From: Thermoproteus sp.
GTDB taxonomy: Archaea > Thermoproteota > Thermoprotei > Thermoproteales > Thermoproteaceae
DNA length: 64,000 nucleotides
Reading direction: 5' to 3'
Assembly: GCA_049976425.1 (NCBI GenBank)
Contig: JBMFIG010000004.1
Span: 1 to 64,000, forward strand
The position numbers and the translations under genes are program-made. Positions 33,887 to 60,460 of the stretch are shown one piece after another; position 1 is the stretch's first letter, and each line of letters begins with the position of its first letter. The notes beneath the pieces were generated by a model. It saw only the letters and a program-made list of their open reading frames with translations. It was not told where the DNA came from and made no database searches.

Positions 33887-35031
33887 CTATAAAAATACGG
33901 GAACTCCTCTGAACTCCTCCACAAAGGCCTTGATCGCCTTTTCGTCCACGGGCCTCTTCCTTGCGGCGTAGTCCTTGACGCGCCTCAAGATATAGTCGAC
34001 GAGCTCTGGGCTGGGCTCCAGCCCCATCTGCTTCAAGGCCCACTCGACGGAGTGCCTCCCCGAGTGCTTCCCCAGCACTATCCTCCTCCTGTTCCCCACG
34101 GCCTCGGGCATCATGGGCTCGTAGGTGAAGGGGTTGTTGAGGACGCCGTGGACGTGGATGCCGGACTCGTGGCTGAAGGCGTTGTCGCCCACGACTGCTT
34201 TGTTGGGCTGTAGCTGGATCCCGAAGAGCCTAGCCACCAGCCGCGACGTCTCGTAGAGCCGCTCCATCCTAAGGCCGACCTCGCGGCCCAGCAGAAAGCG
34301 GGCGGCGGCGGCCACCTCCTCCAGCGCCGCGTTGCCGCCCCTCTCGCCGAACCCGTTGACAGTGACTTGGGCCACCTCGGCGCCCGCCTCTATCGCGGCG
34401 ATGGTGTTGGCCACCGCCATGCCGAAGTCGTCGTGGCAGTGCACGTGCATGGGGACCGGCGGGAGCTCGGCCTTGAGGTGCTCCACCAGATACCTCATCC
34501 TGCTGGGCGTCATCACGCCGACGGTGTCGGGCACGTTTATCTCGTCGGCGCCTGCCTCTATCGCCGTTCTGAACGCCTCGACGAGGAAGCCCAAATCGCT
34601 CCTGGTGGCGTCCTCGGCGCTGAAGAGAACCCTAACCCCTCTGGACTTGGCGTACTCCACAGACTCAGCGATCCTCCGCAACACCTCGTCCCGCGTCATC
34701 CTCAGCTTGTACTTCATGTGTATATCGCTCGTCGCTATGAAGACGTGGACCATGTCCACATCGGCGTCGACGGCGGCGTCTATGTCGGCCTTGTTGGCCC
34801 GCGCCAGGCTGGCCACCTCTGAATACGCCGCGTCCCGCGCTATTCTCCTCACCGCCTCGGCCTCCTCGGGCGACACGGCCGCGAAGCCGGCCTCTATATA
34901 GTCCACCTTTAGTTCGTCCAACGCCATGCCTATCTGGACCTTCTCTTCGACGGTCAGAGAGATGCCGGGCATCTGTTCGCCGTCTCTGAGGGTGGTGTCG
35001 AAGAACCTCACCCGGTGAGCCCCGAATCCAT
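33887..35031 (-). CDS. leuA: 2-isopropylmalate synthase without C-terminal regulatory domain; predicted -1 frameshift near the start
   Basis: [22 protein letters not shown] and HESGIH motifs; ATG 35031 opens ATG GAT TCG GGG CTC ACC GGG TGA, enzyme in the -1 frame (in-frame GTG at 35011). Confidence 0.88.
35008..35031 (-). promoter_or_regulatory. Putative Leu-sensing frameshift cassette (TCG GGG CTC)
   Basis: ATG about 25 nt after TTTTATATA; G-GGG followed by a Leu codon. Confidence 0.75.
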
Positions 35032-46603: not shown

Positions 46604-47491
46604 TTAGTAGACGGGGGTCAGCCAAGCTAGGTACTTCTCCTCCTTGCCCAGCACAATCCGCCTATACGTCTCGGCTATCTTCTGCGTTATGGGGCCCTTC
46701 TGCAACACCCTTCCGTCTATTTCTATTATCGGCGTGATCTCGGCGGCTGTCCCGACGAAGAACGCCTCGTCGGCCGCGTAGAGCTCCTCCCTCGTTATGC
46801 TCTTCTCCAGGAGCGGTATCCCCAGATCGCCCGCTATCGAGATGACCGTCTCCCTAGTTATGCCCTCGAGGATGCCGTCCTCCAGAGGAGGCGTCATGAG
46901 GACCCCGCGGCGCACTATAAATATATTCTCGCCGGACCCCTCCACGACCTTGCCCTCGGCGTTCAGCATTATGGCCTCGTCGTATCCCCTGGCCCTCGCC
47001 TCGACGGCCGCCATTATGGAGTTGAGGTATATGCCGGTCGCCTTGGCCATGACGGGCATCATGGAGGTGTGGACCCTCCTCCAGCTCACCACGGCCGCCC
47101 TCACGCCCTCGACCTTCAGGTACTTGCCGAAGGGTATAGCCGCTATGGCCACAGACGCCTGTAGCCCCCTAACGTCTAGGCTGATCTGGGGCTTGGATAT
47201 GTACGCCACCGGCCTTATGTAGAGGTCCTCCTTGAACCCGTTGGCCCTCACAGTCTCGACGACGGCCTTGGAGAGCTCCTCAGCCGTGTAGGGCACGTCG
47301 AGGCCTATTATCTTGGCGGATCTCAGAAGCCTCTCCATGTGGTCCCTCAGCCTGAAGACGTAGAGGTTCTCGCCGTTCCAGTAGGCCCGGATCCCCTCGA
47401 ACACGCCGAAGCCGTAGTTGAGGCTCGGCGAGAGCACCGTCACCTTGGCCTCCTCCTCATCCACAAGCCTCCCGTCCAGCCAGACCTTCAT
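46604..47491 (-). CDS. ilvE: Branched-chain amino acid aminotransferase
   Basis: [27 protein letters not shown] and GTAAE motifs. Confidence 0.96.
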
Positions 47492-48474
47492 CTCCCTCCG
47501 AACATCAACCTCCTTATCTCCTCGCCGACCTTCTCGGCGGGATGTCCCCTAATCTCCTCGAGCATCCTCTTGAGGTTGGGCGCGCCTCTGGAGTACTCCT
47601 CGACCCACTCCCGGGCGAACGACCCGTCTCTGACCCTGGCCGCCGCCTCCTTCATCCTCTGCTTCACTGAGTCGTCTATCACCTTGGGCCCGACGGTCAG
47701 CCCTCCGTATCTGGCCGTCTCGCTCACGCCGGTCAACATGCCGTAGAAGCCCCTCTGCCAGATGAGGTCCATGATGAGCTTGGCCTCGTTTATGGCCTCG
47801 AAATACGCCACCTCGGGCTGGTAGCCCAGCTCCACCAACACCTCGAAGCCCTTCCTCAGAAGCTCCAGGAGGCCTCCGACGAGGACGTTCTGCTCCCCTA
47901 TGAGGTCCGTCTCGGTCTCCTCCTTGAACGTCGTCTCTATCACGCCGGCTCTGGTGGCCCCTATGCCTTTGGCTATCGCCAAGGCGTACTCCATGGCCCT
48001 CCCCGAGTAGTTCTGGTGGACCGCGACCAAGGCGGGGACGCCGCGGCCCGCCAAGAACTCGTCGCGGACCAGCCGCCCCGGCCCCTTGGGCGCCACCATC
48101 ACTACGTCGACGTTGGCGGGCGGCTTTATCAAGCCGAAGTGTATGTTGAAGCCGTGTGCGAAGTCGACCACCGCGCCGGGCTTCAGATTGGGCTCTATCT
48201 GCTCGCGCCAGATCTTGGGCTGCTCCATGTCGGGCAGTAGGACCAGCAACACGTCCGCCCTCTTTACCGCCTCGCCCACCTCGTACACCTCGAACCCCTC
48301 CGCCTTGGCTTGGTCCCAGGACTTCCCCCTCCTGACGCCCACCACGACGTTCAGCCCCGAGTCTCTGAGGTTCAAGGCCTGCGCCCTTCCCTGGATACCG
48401 TAGCCGAGAACCGCTATGGTCTTGCCCTTGAGCGGCTCGAGGGAGGCGTCCTTGTCCGTATATATCCTCGCCAT
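47488..48474 (-). CDS. ilvC: Ketol-acid reductoisomerase
   Basis: GYGIQG, AHGF, VAPKGPG and [10 protein letters not shown] motifs. Confidence 0.97.
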
Positions 48475-48502
48475 GGCCCTCAATAGGCTATGTTTTTAAC
48501 AG

Positions 48503-48766
48503 TCATCGCCTCTCCCTCAACGCCACGGCCATCGCGGGCGCAGTCTGTAGCTTGCCTATCTCGAGGACCTCCGGCAGTTTGTCCAGCTTGGCCACCAGCC
48601 AGTTTATCTCGTCGGCCGGGCCCTCCACGTCCATAACTATGTGGTACGTCGAGTCCCTCGCCTCTATCTCCATGCGCCTCACGAACACCTTCGCCCTCCT
48701 CACTATGCTGACGACCCTCCCGACGTAGTCCATCGAGGAGGGTATCCTTATGCTAATGGCGCTCAT
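48503..48766 (-). CDS. ilvH: Acetolactate synthase small (ACT) subunit
   Basis: ACT-like fold, KLDKLPEV; lies between ilvB and ilvC. Confidence 0.75.
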   Translation of the reverse strand: MSAISIRIPSSMDYVGRVVSIVRRAKVFVRRMEIEARDSTYHIVMDVEGPADEINWLVAKLDKLPEVLEIGKLQTAPAMAVALRERR

Positions 48767-50527
48767 ACCTCAACGACACGTCCTCCATCCCCTCGGGCAG
48801 AATTGCTTGGGTTAGCCAATCGCCGGGCTTCACCCAAGGCAACACGATGTCCTTGTCCTCGTCTATGGTCACGTCTATCACTATAGGCTCGTTGTTCCTC
48901 ACAGCCCACGACACGGCCCTCTCCAGCTCCTCGTAGGTCGACGGCTTGACGCCCTCTATCCCGTAGGCCTCCGCTATCTTCAAGAAGTCGGGGTTCCTCG
49001 CGAACCTCACGGCGATCTGCCTATTGCCGTACATGTAGACCTGCCACTGCTTGACCAGCTGTAAGGACGCGTTGTCGAATATCACCTCGACAAAGGGCAG
49101 ATCGTACTCCCTCACCAGCGCGAGGTTGTTGAAGGTCATCTGGAACGACCCGTCGCCGTCTATACACACGACGGGCCTAGAGCGGTCGGCGAGCTTGGCG
49201 CCGAGAGCCGCAGGTATGCCGAAGCCCATCGTGCCCAGGCCGGCCGACGTTATGAAGGTCCCCGGCTCGTACACCTCCCACCAGATCTCCGACCACATCT
49301 GGTGTCCCCCCACGCCCGTCACGGTGACGGCGTTCGGCGGCGTGGCCCTCCTCACCGCCTTTAGCACCTTCCAGGGCGCGAAGTACTTGAACTTGCCGGC
49401 GGCCTTCTCCATGGCCTCTTCGTACCTCCTCCTGATCTCGTAAAGCCAGGCGAGGAACTTGGGGCTCCTCGCGGCGGCCGACGGCATTAGGTCCAGCATC
49501 TCCCTAAGAGCCTCCTTGGCGTCCGCTATTATGCCGACGGTGGGCTTCACGTTCTTCCCCACCTCGCTTCGGTCGATATCTATATGGATCAGCTTGACCT
49601 CGCCCGACCTAACCATCTCCTGGAGCTCCTTGAACCTCCCCCAAGTCCTGTCGCTGAACCTGGTCCCCACGGCCACCACCACGTCGGCGTTTGCCAAAGC
49701 CGCGTCCGCCTCGGCCCTCCCGTGCATCCCGGCCGGCCCCATATACAGCGGGTGGTTGTGGGGGATGGCGGCCTTCCCGGGCAAGGTCGACACGATGGGC
49801 GCATTGAGCCTCTCGGCGAGCTCCAGCACCTCCTTGGTGGCGCCCGACCACAACACTCCGCCTCCCGCCAGCACCACCGGCCTCTCCGCCTCCAAGATCA
49901 TCTTGACGGCCTTCGCCACGTCCTCCTCCCTGGGCTTGGGAGGTATGAACTTTGCCGCGTTTATCTGTATCTTGGCCTCGCCCCTATACTCCATCAGCTG
50001 GAGATCCCTCGGCAGATCCACCAAGGTCGGTCCGGGCCTCCCCAGCATCGAGATCTCGTAGGCGATCTTGACGGCGGCCGTGGCCTCCTCCGGCCTCTTC
50101 ACCTGGTACACCCACTTGGTTATAGGCGTCGCCACCCCCAATATGTCGGTCTCCTGGAACCCATCCCTCCCGAACACCCACGTGGCTACCTGCCCCGTTA
50201 TCGCCGCGACGGGCACCGAGTCCATGTAGGCGTCGGTCAAGCCAGTCACCAAGTTCGTGGCGCCGGGGCCGCTCGTAGCGGCCACCACGGCGGGCCTCCC
50301 CGCTACTCTGGCGTAGCCCTCGGCTGCGTGCACGGCGCCCTGCTCGTGGCGGAACATGACCACCTCTATGTCGTCTACGAAATACGCCGCGTCGAATAGG
50401 GCCATTATAGAGCCGCCCGTTATTCCGAGGATGTGCCTTACCTTGAGCTCCCTAAGCGTGTCGATTATTCTGTCGACGACTCTATTGGGGCGATCCCCTC
50501 GAGCCCCGAAGCGACCCCCGAATCCAT
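48753..50527 (-). CDS. ilvB: Acetolactate synthase large subunit; predicted -1 frameshift near the start
   Basis: [19 protein letters not shown] and GDGSF motifs; ATG 50527 opens a 20-codon ORF and the enzyme is in the -1 frame. Confidence 0.93.
50465..50527 (-). promoter_or_regulatory. Putative Val/Leu/Ile-sensing frameshift cassette (TCG GGG GTC; TCG GGG CTC; GAG GGG ATC)
   Basis: Three tandem G-GGG sites, each followed by a branched-chain amino acid codon. Confidence 0.8.
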
Positions 50528-50630
50528 ACGGCAACTATTTAACCTATATTTAAAGATTGTCTTCCTACATAAAAGGCGGAGGAGGCGCCGTACGAGCGGA
50601 ATGCTTAAAAGCTATATAGATACCTGCGCC

Positions 50631-51119
50631 ATGGAGATAAGAGGTCGGGCACTGGTCTACGGCGATAAGATAGACACCGATATAATCATACCGGCCCGCT
50701 ATCTGGTATACACCGACCCCAAGATCTTGGGCGAACACGCCATGGAGCCTCTGGACCCCGACTTCCCCAAGAAGGCCAAAGGCGCCATACTGGTGGCCGG
50801 CAGGGCCTTCGGGATGGGCAGCAGCCGCGAGCAGGCGGCGACGGCCCTCAAGGGCGCCGGCGTCTTAGCCGTCGTGGCCGAGTCCTTCGCCCGCATATTC
50901 TTCCGCAACGCCGTCAACGTAGGCCTTCCCGTCCTTCAAGCCCCCGCCAGGAGCAGAGTGAGAGAGGGCGACGAGCTCCTCGTGAGGCTGGACGCGGGCG
51001 AGGTGGTGAACCTCACCACTGGCGAGGTCATCAAGGGGAAGCCGCTCTCCGGCTTGGTCCTCGACATAATAAAAGCGGGCGGCCTCGTGGAGTACCTAAA
51101 GGCCAGGCCCCGTATATAG
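50631..51119 (+). CDS. leuD: 3-isopropylmalate dehydratase/homoaconitase small subunit
   Basis: [16 protein letters not shown] and SFARIFFRN motifs. Confidence 0.93.
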
Positions 51120-51168: not shown

Positions 51169-51189
51169 ATGCGTTCGGGGAAAACGTAA
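51169..51189 (+). promoter_or_regulatory. Putative Lys-sensing frameshift cassette (TCG GGG AAA)
   Basis: ATG 26 nt after TTAAATAT; no in-frame ATG/GTG/TTG before the catalytic DSTLREGEQ. Confidence 0.8.
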
Positions 51190-52562
51190 AGATCCTCGAC
51201 TCGACGCTGAGGGAAGGCGAGCAGACCCCCGGCGTCGTCTTCTCCGAAGATTGGAGGATTAGGATCGCCAAGGCCCTCTCAGATGCCGGCGTCCACATGA
51301 TAGAGGTGGGCGATCCCAACGTGGCGCCCGACATAAGGTCGGCCATAGCGAAGATAGTGGCCATGAAGAGAGACGGCGAGATAGCCGGCGAGATCGTGGC
51401 CCACAGCAGATCGGTCAAGGCAGATATAGAGAACGCCGCGTCGCTCGAGCCCGACAGGGTGGCTATATTCTACGGCGTGAGCGACATACACTTGAAGCAC
51501 AAGCACAGGAAGTCGAGGGAGGAGGCCCTGTCCATAATTGCGGAGCACGTGGAGTTCGCGAGGAGCCACGGAGTGCGCGTGAGGTTCACTGCCGAGGACG
51601 CCACGCGGGCCGACCCCGACTACTTAATACAGGTGGTCAAGACGGCGAGGGATGCGGGAGCCGACAGGGTGAGCATCGCCGACACCGTGGGTATCTTGAC
51701 GCCCGAGAAGGCGCGGCGGCTGTTCGCCGAGGTCAAGGAGGCCGTGCCCGACGTGGGGCTCGACATACACGCCCACAACGACCTCGGCATGGCGGTGGCC
51801 AACTCCTTGGCGGCCGTCGAGGGGGGAGCCGACGTGGTCCACACGACGGTGAACGGCCTCGGCGAGAGGGCAGGGATAACGCCGCTCCAGACGTTCGCCG
51901 CGGCGTACTACTACCACAGGGGGGTGAAGCTGATAGATCTGACTAAGTTGCCCTACCTGGCCTCCTTGGTGGAGGCGGCCAGCGGCATAGCGCAGATGCC
52001 CACGTTCCCCGTGACCGGCGACAACGCCTTCACGCACAAGGCCGGGGTCCACCAGGCCGGCGTGTTGGCGAGCCCCGAGACCTACGAGCCGTTCCCTCCC
52101 GAGGTGGTGGGCCGCACGAGGGACTTCTCGTTGGACAAATACAGCGGGAGGAAGGCCGTCGCCCACAGGCTCGAGAGGCTCGGCGTCAAGGTCGACGAGG
52201 AGGTCTTGGGGAAGCTCGTGGAGGAGCTGAAGTCCACCAACGCGCGGAGGCTACGCGACGAGGATCTCCTCGAGATGTTGGAGAAGATAACCGGGATGAG
52301 GTACAGGGCGCAGGTCAACAAGCACATAGAGGCGTACGTCTGGGTGAAAGTCGACGAGAACGTCTACACGACGTCGGTGGCCAGGAGGATCATGGCGATA
52401 AGGGGCGTGACCGGCGTCGGCGAGGTGACGGGCGAGTTCGACATAGTGGCCAAGATATCGGCCGAGAACGCCGAGGAGCTGAACAGGATAATCGAGGAGG
52501 TGAGGGCCGTCAAGGGCGTCAAGTCGACGCTCACCAATATAGTCCTGAAACAGCTTTCATAA
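51169..52562 (+). CDS. Homocitrate synthase with C-terminal RAM/AsnC domain; predicted -1 frameshift near the start
   Basis: ILDSTLREGEQ (upstream of the ORF-track start), HAHNDLG, GERAG and HKAGVH motifs; ATG CGT TCG GGG AAA ACG TAA, enzyme in the -1 frame. Confidence 0.88.
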
Positions 52563-58726: not shown

Positions 58727-59778
58727 ATGGGGTGGGGAGGTATGTACCTAAGCCCTTGATCCTCGGGGAACCCCGCCGCTATGTTGAACGCCTGCACGGC
58801 CTGCCCGGCGGCCCCGCGCACCAAGTTGTCTATGGCCGAGAACGCGACGACCCTCCTCATCCTGGGATCTATCTCGAAGCCCACGTCGACTATGTTGGTG
58901 CCCAGTACATATTTTATATTTGGATAGCGCGCTAGGCCCAGCTTGTCCTTCACGATCCTCACGAACTTCGAGTCGCCGTACATGGCCCTATACGCCTTCC
59001 ACAACGTCGGCTCGTCCACGTCGCGTTCGGTGAACACGTGCGCCGTGGAGAGTATGCCCCTCACGGCGTCGACGGCGTGCGGCGTGTAGGCCACCCTCAC
59101 CTCCCTCCCCGCAAGCCGCGAGAGCTCCTGCTCCACCTCCGCCGCGTGTCTGTGGTGAACCGGCTCGTAGGGCCTTATGACGTAGGTGCGGTGGCTGTGC
59201 ATGTCGAGGACCGACCCCTCGGCCCCGGCGCCTGAGGAGCCCATCTTCACGTCGATTACCGGCGGGAGGGGGCCTAGAAGCCCGTATTTGGCCAGAGGCG
59301 CGAGCGCCATTATGGATGCAGTGGCGGTGCACCCGGGAGACGCTATGAGCTTGGCGCCGGGTAGCTCGTCCTTGTGCAGTTCGGGGAGGCCGTAAACCGC
59401 CTTCTTCAAGAGATCGGGGTAGGGATGCGGCTGCGGCCACTTATACCACTCCACGTAGGCGTTGGGATCCTTCAGCCTGAAGTCGGCCGACAGGTCGACC
59501 ACCATGAGGCCGTGCTCGTACAGCTGGGGGACCCACTTGACCGACTCGCCGTGGGGAAGCGCCAGGAAGACCACGTCGGCCTTCAACGCGGCGTCGATGC
59601 TGGGCTCCACGAACTTGAGGTTTGTGAATCCCCTGAGGTTTGGGTGGATCCTGTAGACGTACTCCCCCTTGAACTTCCTAGAGGTGGCGCAGACTATCTC
59701 GACCCCTCCGTGCTGTAGCAAGATGCGCAACAGCTCTCCGCCGGTGAATCCGGAGGCCCCCACTACGCAAGCCTTCAT
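58723..59778 (-). CDS. lysY: [LysW]-aminoadipate/glutamate phosphate reductase
   Basis: [24 protein letters not shown] and [11 protein letters not shown] motifs. Confidence 0.94.
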
Positions 59779-60460
59779 GCCTCCTCCAGCCCGACCTCGG
59801 CCAGGAGCCTCGCCCTAGCCTCGTCCAGCTCCGGCACGGGGTCTACGTCTATCACGCGCTCCCCGTCGTCGTAGACGCCGAGCGTGATCTCAGCGTACTT
59901 GAGGCCCAGCGACCTCAACACCTCGCCCGCTATCCCGTCGATCCCGGGCACGGCGAACACCTTCCTGACCTCTCTGGGCTTGGGCATGGCGATGCTACCC
60001 TTGGCCAGGGGGTTCCTCATGTAGTTGCGGTGCTCCACGACGCTTTTGGCCCCCTCTACGCTAGTCACCGACACGTCTAGGCCCAGGCGCCAGACGGTCG
60101 CGAGGAGCCACGGCGGCTTGAAGTCCACCTTCTCCACGGCCTCCTCGTCGGAGAACACGAAGAAGTGGGGGCCGTATTTGGGCAACCAGTACAGCCTATT
60201 GAGCGCGTTGTATATGGCGTATGAGGGGTTTATCGATCTGCGGAACAGGGAGGCGTACACAGCGCCGAGGTACTGGTTCCTCGTCCTTATGAAGACGGTG
60301 AAGTCCCCGCCCTCGACATGTCCCTGGGATATATCGAGGATATCGGCATGCGCGCCGCGGGCCGATAGGAGCTTGGCGAGAAGCCTCTCGCCTAGCTCGG
60401 GCTTCTCGGATAGTATGAGTATCCTCGCCCCGTTGGCCCCGCTTTCCCCGCAAGGTCCAT
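59775..60460 (-). CDS. Divergent LysX/ArgX (RimK ATP-grasp)-like protein; predicted -1 frameshift near the start
   Basis: Frame stays open upstream of the ORF-track GTG (ILILSEKPELGERLL…FIRT…SINP); KSVVEHR…NPL and IDVDPVPE resemble LysX; ATG 60460 is out of frame. Confidence 0.7.
60392..60460 (-). promoter_or_regulatory. Putative Lys/Pro/Arg-sensing frameshift cassette (GCG GGG AAA GCG GGG CCA ACG GGG CGA)
   Basis: ATG about 27 nt after TTTATATA; three tandem NCG GGG sites. Confidence 0.8.

Follow-up and report, generated by a model that had tools for sequence, protein, structure and literature searches.

Described Recoding and Leader Systems and the ilvB Locus

The described system closest in logic to the one considered here is prfB, in which a short reading frame ends early and the main frame is entered through slippage of the P-site transfer RNA (tRNA) while the A site awaits a scarce factor; the frequency of this +1 shift reports the supply of release factor 2 (RF2) and sets the synthesis of the protein that relieves the shortage. 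In this work, we describe a candidate of comparable design at ilvB, the gene encoding the large subunit of acetolactate synthase, in a 64,000-nt stretch of DNA (hereafter, the window) from the hot-spring archaeon Thermoproteus sp. (GenBank assembly GCA_049976425.1, contig JBMFIG010000004.1, positions 1 to 64,000). Comparison of the sequence with those of its relatives makes it very likely that acetolactate synthase depends on an obligatory recoding event of some kind, and likely that this event is a programmed −1 frameshift at "hungry" sense codons, acting as an amino-acid sensor with several inputs. The prfB shift is +1 and is signalled by a stop codon and RF2, whereas the ilvB device would work by −1 slippage at a sense codon and would respond to charged tRNA. 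It also differs from prfB in that the ilvB leader has no visible Shine-Dalgarno stimulator, appears to be leaderless and carries its sites at codons 2–11, and in that the archaeal device would be present on many genes, each with its own codon.

Two families of bacterial leader systems offer further parallels. Attenuator leaders (ivbL/ilvL, leuL, thrL, trpL, pheL and hisL) likewise consist of a short open reading frame (ORF) whose cognate codons sense charged tRNA; bacterial ilv leaders combine valine (Val), leucine (Leu) and isoleucine (Ile) codons in a multivalent control, and thrL combines threonine (Thr) and Ile codons. In contrast to attenuators, the archaeal leader contains no terminator or antiterminator, uses a single sensor codon per amino acid instead of a run, and overlaps the enzyme gene, with the reading frame and not transcription as the read-out. 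The T-box riboswitches of Gram-positive bacteria govern a similar regulon of biosynthetic and aminoacyl-tRNA synthetase genes with one specifier triplet each; here, however, no T-box RNA is present and the triplet would be read by a translating ribosome. Little has been established about amino-acid sensing in hyperthermophilic archaea whose mRNAs are leaderless, and neither attenuators nor T-boxes are known in them.

With respect to frameshifting itself, the fucA1 gene of Sulfolobus solfataricus reportedly carries an A-AAA-AAT heptamer inside the gene, which joins two enzyme halves and is not known to sense a metabolite. It resembles the ilvB candidate in being a programmed −1 frameshift of a crenarchaeon and, in the consulted portion of a 2021 review, is the only −1 frameshift reported in Archaea (PMC8211752). 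Leftward frameshifting at "hungry codons" was described in Escherichia coli (Gallant and Lindsley 1992, as cited in portions of the reviews PMC8211752 and PMC5009743). It is a laboratory error phenomenon there, whereas at ilvB it would be a conserved and obligatory route to an essential enzyme if our reading holds. Regarding useful trans-frame products of such shifting, the corresponding portion of the 2016 review by Atkins and colleagues states that "no examples are known" (PMC5009743).

Organization and Conservation of the ilvB Leader

The leader ORF, located on the minus strand behind a TATA box (Table 1), reads ATG GAT TCG GGG GTC GCT TCG GGG CTC GAG GGG ATC GCC CCA ATA GAG TCG TCG ACA GAA TAA. 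The ilvB ORF reported by the ORF finder (48753–50534, minus strand) lies in the −1 frame relative to the leader ATG and encodes a thiamine diphosphate (TPP)-dependent enzyme of the acetolactate synthase type, according to the Pfam TPP_enzyme N, M and C domains. A first-pass annotation, made from the letters of the window, had pointed out three G-GGG sites followed by Val, Leu and Ile codons and a −1 frame open through all of them; sequence and translation agree exactly with the former, and the ilvB ORF bears out the latter. The arrangement is that expected of a frameshift gene, with two overlapping ORFs of which the downstream one is in the −1 frame and has no conserved start. At each of the three sites, G_GGG would allow a glycine tRNA (tRNA-Gly) to re-pair fully one base upstream, as in P-site slippage; a tandem-slippage heptamer (X XXY YYZ) is absent, because a tRNA reading GTC, CTC or ATC in the A site cannot pair with GGT, GCT or GAT. 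The leader also shares with attenuation leaders the short ORF containing codons of the regulating amino acids, here Val, Leu and Ile. Pfam TPP_enzyme_N spans ilvB residues 19–132, and all three possible slip junctions lie upstream of this domain. Although GGGG alone is frequent in the genome (5.8 per kb per strand), the pair TCGGGG[GC]T..TCGGGG[GC]T within 18 nt occurs a single time in its 1.84 Mb, at ilvB.

The locus was compared among 28 of the 29 genomes of this archaeal family, whose public relatives are named Pyrobaculum and Thermoproteus; G059 (61% complete) was left out. At site 1, TCGGGGGT was identical in 27 of the 28 genomes, and the exception, with CCGGGAGT, has a degenerate site (CCG GGA GTA) at which Val still follows. 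At site 2, TCGGGGCT was identical in all 28 and was followed by C or T. The codon after site 1 encodes Val in every genome (GTN, as GTC, GTT or GTA) and the codon after site 2 encodes Leu in every genome (CTY), with 0, 3 or 12 nt between the two motifs. Used as a search pattern, TCGGGGGTN{0,18}TCGGGGCT was recovered from 26/28 other family genomes, almost always as a single match at ilvB, and from none of the 33 genomes of two sister families; sister-family ilvB has ordinary in-frame ATG or GTG starts.

This conservation exceeds what either protein frame needs, as expected for a frameshift site. In the ilvB frame, the motifs contain four Gly/Ala codons (GGG GGT and GGG GCT), whose third bases are invariant in 27–28 of the 28 genomes, and the T of GGT and of GCT never changes although it is silent in that frame. 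The base after the invariant T does vary (C, T or A at site 1; C or T at site 2), always keeping Val or Leu in the leader frame, while the ilvB-frame residue changes among R, Q, Y, F, I, S and N after site 1 and among R, S, Y, H, Q and P after site 2. As a control, six four-fold-degenerate codons were taken from further downstream, each encoding the same amino acid in 27 or more of the 28 genomes; none keeps its third base, and all four bases appear. A frozen silent T in the ilvB frame, next to a base that is free as long as Val or Leu is kept, therefore argues that selection acts on the leader frame.

Site 3 (G GGG ATY) has a narrower distribution, being present in all nine genomes of the genus, in 5/17 of a second genus and in neither of the two of a third; the five second-genus copies have five different preceding codons. 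The first-pass annotation had tied its proposal to conservation of the three codons in relatives. Val and Leu sustain it throughout the family and Ile within the genus, but overall the Ile site is retained in only 14 of the 28 genomes, being missing or degenerate in the other 14. The predicted Val and Leu inputs are accordingly universal in the family and the predicted Ile input is lineage-specific; for the Thermoproteus sp. genome, we regard a working Ile input as moderately probable.

Where ilvB Starts

Promoter geometry was calibrated on the 313 TTTA[AT]ATA sites of the genome by recording the starts of ORFs of at least 100 codons against their distance from the first T of the box. These starts peak 25–30 nt after the first T (35 ATG starts, with a mode of 27), so that ATG 50527 stands at the modal distance of the genome. 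TTG 50534, the sole canonical in-frame candidate and the one that the ORF finder takes as the ilvB start, lies at 20 nt, where 0 ATG and 2 GTG/TTG long-ORF starts correspond to background. ATG 50527 is thus predicted to be where a leaderless mRNA should begin, and TTG 50534 is probably not used as a start and most likely not even transcribed, because the former sits at the calibrated leaderless distance and the latter at a background distance. Across the family, an out-of-frame (+1) ATG is present in 28/28 genomes, 27–30 nt after the first T of a box that reads TTTA[AT]ATA in 27 and CTTAAATA in the remaining one, and it opens a leader ORF of 9–20 codons. TTG 50534 is kept only here and in a 98%-identical relative (L001/L002; two of the nine genomes of the genus). 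No in-frame ATG, GTG or TTG is found between the upstream stop and site 2 in 21 of the 28 genomes, and in at least seven genomes the first in-frame start downstream is an ATG inside the conserved GGSIM block. A conserved in-frame start yielding a protein that begins MPYGF, which the first-pass annotation had set against its own proposal, was not found.

Public gene calls for the ilvB protein (P0003–P0069) have N-termini that vary widely across the family, some at rare codons just before the G runs and others 20–45 residues downstream, inside the conserved domain; a start in the leader frame was used in none of the 28 inspected. Public start annotation of these genes is unreliable. These rare or downstream starts would suit ordinary initiation, in which translation begins at TTG 50534 here and at rare in-frame codons elsewhere, and a glycine-rich N-terminal tail accounts for the short ATG ORF and the G runs as by-products. 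Such initiation has further points in its favor, which count against a frameshift: TTG 50534 is in frame and would be usable if transcription began further upstream than predicted, and 7/28 family genomes have some in-frame GTG, TTG or ATG upstream. It is nevertheless opposed by the rarity of the TTG within the genus and its short distance from the TATA box, and by the 21 genomes without any canonical in-frame start. Furthermore, it does not explain why bases that are silent in the ilvB frame stay fixed next to residues that vary, and it gives no account of the cognate-codon rule at the 14 other loci described below. For these reasons, we consider ordinary initiation very unlikely.

Leaders of the Same Type on Other Genes

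The genome was screened for an ATG located 24–32 nt after an AT-rich octamer and opening an ORF of at most 45 codons with an in-frame G_GGG, together with a shifted frame that stays open for 150 codons or more. The screen gave 33 matches (32 loci) for a −1 shift and 12 for a +1 shift, four of the latter being the same leaders. When the −1 screen was run by homopolymer under the same limits, 29 matches were obtained for G and 10, 8 and 5 for A, C and T, respectively; the effect is specific to G. The codon TCG precedes GGG in 10/20 first-screen matches, compared to 0/26 ordinary long ORFs with an early NNG GGG.

According to NCBIfam and Pfam assignments, the codon after GGG is cognate to the product of the long ORF at 15 of the 32 loci (Table 1). 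Twelve of these are further loci of the genome (L061–L071 and L214), among them those of thrC, the transketolase N-terminal subunit, which is linked to aromatic synthesis, and the tryptophanyl-tRNA synthetase (TrpRS). Within the window, the homocitrate synthase gene neighboring ilvB is also in the −1 frame relative to its leader, matches TIGR02146 above the cut-off, has a LysM-like C-terminal part and would have lysine (Lys) as its sensor. The screen of this genome revealed no sensor for His, Met, Pro or Ser. Four matches, corresponding to an MBL-fold hydrolase, a CDF transporter and two ORFs without a family, were treated as chance.

Table 1. Features of the ilvB locus and genes preceded by leaders with a cognate candidate sensor codon. 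Coordinates are positions in the window.
Feature	Coordinates	Strand	Sensor codon(s)	Remarks
TATA box of the ilvB promoter, TTTAAATA	50547..50554	−		First T 27 nt upstream of ATG 50527; 19 bases between box and ATG
In-frame TTG, taken as ilvB start by the ORF finder	50532..50534	−		7 nt upstream of ATG 50527
ilvB leader ORF	50465..50527	−	GTC, CTC, ATC	20 codons plus TAA (50467–50465); +1 relative to ilvB; predicted leaderless start
Site 1, TCG GGG GTC	50513..50521	−	GTC	Candidate P-site slip at G_GGG, Val codon in A site; post-slip A-site codon GGT
Site 2, TCG GGG CTC	50501..50509	−	CTC	G_GGG, Leu codon in A site; post-slip codon GCT
Site 3, GAG GGG ATC	50492..50500	−	ATC	G_GGG, Ile codon in A site; post-slip codon GAT
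ilvB frame (acetolactate synthase large subunit)	48753..50519	−		From first codon reachable by a site-1 slip to the stop
ACT-domain small subunit (ilvN/ilvH)	48503..48766	−		PF13710; start overlaps ilvB end by 14 nt
ilvC, ketol-acid reductoisomerase	47488..48483	−		PF07991, PF01450
ilvE, class IV aminotransferase	46604..47491	−		PF01063; overlaps ilvC end by 4 nt
Homocitrate synthase leader	51169–51189	+	AAA	Long ORF 51177–52562; TATA box CTTAAATA 26 nt upstream; ATG CGT TCG GGG AAA ACG TAA
Isopropylmalate synthase (leuA) leader	35008–35031	−	CTC	Long ORF 33890–35023, leuA in −1 frame; ATG GAT TCG GGG CTC ACC GGG TGA
Threonine synthase (thrC)			ACA	
Citramalate synthase (cimA)			ATC	
LysX			AAA	
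TrpE			TGG	
TrpB-like enzyme			TGG	
TrpRS			TGG	
Transketolase N-terminal subunit			TAC, TGG	
Prephenate dehydratase (pheA)			TTC	
CarA			CGA	
Cysteine-synthase-fold enzyme			TGC	Weak match, below curated cut-off
CysRS			TGT	
IleRS			ATT	

Several of these leaders are conserved in relatives, and most of their target frames likewise lack any in-frame start. The leuA leader, ATG NNN TCG (or ACG) GGG CTC, was found in 28/28 family genomes, and that of cimA, ATG (T/C/A)(C/A)G GGG AT(T/C), in 23/23 assessable ones, often as the six-codon ORF ATG TCG GGG ATT ATG TAG. For thrC, TCG GGG AC(A/G) was present in 26/28 genomes; the exceptions are the two of the third genus, which carry a Shine-Dalgarno sequence and a GTG instead. 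In the second genus (L085–L099), many thrC leaders have G GGG ATT (Ile) just before TCG GGG ACR (Thr), and they share this pairing of Thr and Ile with the bacterial thr leader. Within the genus, the trpE leader was present in 9/9 genomes and the cysS leader in 5/7 assessable ones, plus one (L128, ATG GGG TGC) read by eye; L109, L142 and L158, in which the pattern matched in upstream coding sequence, were scored as lacking the leader.

In the sister family, 0/23 genomes had a G_GGG leader at leuA. Sister-family leuA (L216–L238) shows another conserved element at its 5′ end, GGTGG.TTAGATTGCTCAG. Read in the gene frame, this element gives ATT GCT CAG and has no canonical start close by; the +1 frame gives TTG CTC, a start and a Leu codon, with an early stop in at least L220. 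It may represent another kind of Leu-dependent device, for initiation or for recoding.

Two alternatives that dispense with a ribosomal shift can be weighed against these leaders. The first is transcriptional slippage, in which RNA polymerase inserts an additional G at the G runs, so that a fraction of transcripts regains the frame. One extra base in the RNA at site 1, where five Gs are indeed present, would lead to a protein identical to the one produced by a −1 ribosomal slip there; however, most leaders contain only four, for example TCGGGGACA and TCGGGGCTC, and runs of four Gs are far below the lengths known to slip in transcription. Slippage by the polymerase would also give no reason for the match between codon and pathway or for two or three sites at ilvB, and we find this explanation quite unlikely. 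The second is an RNA or protein sensor that works without translation, with the triplet after GGGG read by a tRNA or a regulator in the manner of a T-box specifier. The pairing of triplet and pathway and the presence of tRNA synthetase genes recall T-box regulons. Nevertheless, an Rfam scan of positions 50300–50750 gave 0 matches at E values up to 1, with none of the T-box elements (Stem I, specifier loop and T-box), no terminator-like site or attenuator hairpin was found in the leader, which overlaps the gene, and no conserved structure is present. The predicted 5′ end is only 6–15 nt away from the triplet. In every case this triplet shares the frame of the leaderless ATG and the long ORF occupies the −1 frame (33 versus 12 matches), and a start codon is missing from many of the target ORFs. 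A sensor of this type therefore seems extremely improbable.

Proposed Mechanism and Strength of the Reading

In the mechanism that we propose, the ilvB mRNA would be leaderless, beginning at or beside ATG 50527, and ribosomes would enter a 20-codon frame; only those that shift one base back into the ilvB frame would make acetolactate synthase. The peptidyl-tRNA-Gly on the P-site GGG would re-pair with the overlapping G-GG one base upstream, a slip favored by an A site left empty when the next codon is slowly read. The ribosome would meet the GTC, CTC and ATC sites in turn and thus have three successive chances to slip, so that shortage of any one of the three charged tRNAs would raise acetolactate synthase synthesis, in an OR-like negative feedback. 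With ample charged tRNA for all three, the codons would be read promptly and translation would terminate at the leader stop. After a slip, the A site would hold a G followed by the initial two bases of the sensor codon, giving GGT, GCT or GAT at ilvB and GAC, GAA, GCG, GTT or GTG at the other loci, encoding Gly, Ala, Asp, Glu or Val. At ilvB, decoding could then resume without the scarce amino acid, because the post-slip codon is one for Gly, Ala or Asp. The three possible products would differ only in a few residues ahead of residue 19 and the TPP-binding domain. We infer from these features the 5′ end at the ATG, the ribosomal nature of the shift, its response to charged-tRNA supply and its coupling to downstream genes.

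A conserved stimulatory structure was not detected in or after the leader (family alifold energy of −3.9 kcal/mol; z = −0.57 for the Thermoproteus sp. sequence against shuffles). Such a lack of structure would fit one-tRNA slippage at a vacant A site, which is independent of stimulators according to the consulted portion of the 2021 review (PMC8211752). With respect to codon usage in this genome, GGG accounts for 25% of Gly codons, TCG for 31% of Ser codons (the commonest), GTC for 40% of Val and CTC for 36% of Leu codons. An explanation based on rare codons was rejected, all four being common, and GTC and CTC were therefore not chosen for being slow as such. Two further ideas were dropped: a Shine-Dalgarno role of GGGGGT for a downstream start, as no start codon follows in the ilvB frame, and a G-quadruplex, for which this leader has only three G tracts and most of its relatives only two.

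The same slip sites could also serve a constitutive −1 frameshift, obligatory and yet not regulated by amino-acid supply, and the anatomy of the sites taken alone would permit it. One site would be enough for such a shift, however, whereas ilvB keeps two invariant sites and often a third, and the A-site codon tracks the product at 15 loci and is conserved. A constitutive shift is unlikely in our view. The proposal of the first-pass annotation that the shift is triggered by shortage gains support instead from the cognate-codon leaders on other genes of this genome and from their conservation in relatives.

Beyond the in-frame starts and the patchy Ile site mentioned above, the following observations weigh against the hungry-codon frameshift. 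Seventeen of the 32 screen loci have no pathway match or are not annotated (in two, GGG is followed by a stop; four have an unrelated product or no assigned family; and 11 are not annotated). Where the sensor is Trp or Cys, the −1 frame necessarily reads GTG, and these loci could therefore use an ordinary GTG start. A tRNA search with aragorn gave 16 tRNAs by default and 29 with introns allowed, with no tRNA-Gly in either set, and lowered thresholds produced hundreds to thousands of false calls. The sequencing runs listed as containing this sequence were four DNA metagenomes and no RNA run. Finally, hungry-codon slippage in E. coli is usually inefficient.

Considering all loci together, we find it fairly likely that the device forms a family-wide regulon without a dedicated regulator. 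Biosynthetic and aminoacyl-tRNA synthetase genes would lie one base out of frame behind a leaderless mini-ORF and be reached by a −1 slip at G_GGG only upon starvation for the cognate amino acid, with several inputs at ilvB and two (Ile or Thr) at thrC of the second genus.

Relation to Published Work and Implications

The names Pyrobaculum and Thermoproteus and the terms acetolactate and leaderless are not mentioned in the first 300,000 characters of the 2016 review (PMC5009743). The text of the GeneTack survey (PMC3711429) is silent on these genes, which its supplementary cluster tables could in principle list, and full-text literature searches returned no paper describing a frameshift in them. 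The candidate would represent a variant of regulatory programmed frameshifting that is unusual in sensing sense codons, in its location at the 5′ end of leaderless mRNAs and in extending over a regulon.

If the reading is correct, the reading frame itself would be the switch, and a slippery Gly codon plus a sensor codon, within nine bases, would replace the RNA structures of bacterial leaders. Such a device could be rewired by a single codon change and stacked into logic, as at ilvB. It would constitute the first natural use of hungry sense-codon frameshifting and an archaeal functional counterpart of attenuation and T-boxes. Archaea, for which the consulted part of the 2021 review gives a single reported −1 frameshift (PMC8211752), would gain many further loci. 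In this archaeon, amino-acid shortage would switch on the corresponding synthesis at about fifteen other genes as well. The starts of these essential genes would be mis-annotated in public records, and gene finders would keep truncating them or assigning false starts.

Operon Context and Additional Observations

As the first-pass annotation had proposed, the gene order is ilvB-ilvH-ilvC-ilvE, with which the Pfam assignments agree, and a LeuD-like gene lies divergently from ilvB on the plus strand. The effect on ilvB might spread to ilvN, ilvC and ilvE by translational coupling, as suggested by the overlaps at two of the three junctions (Table 1).

Another leader-like ORF is located behind a TATA box at 60392–60460 on the minus strand of the window; it contains three G_GGG sites, and the codons after them are AAA (Lys), CCA (Pro) and CGA (Arg). 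The ORF in the −1 frame relative to it (59778–60449, minus strand, 224 residues) has no NCBIfam or Pfam match, and the leader may be a real target or a chance match. Elsewhere in the genome, on the minus strand of contig C1, an AT-rich box precedes ATG 250279, which opens the sequence ATG GCT TCA AAA CTC. The ORF in the −1 frame relative to it is 601 codons long and lacks an in-frame start; A_AAA may be a slip site here, ahead of a Leu codon.

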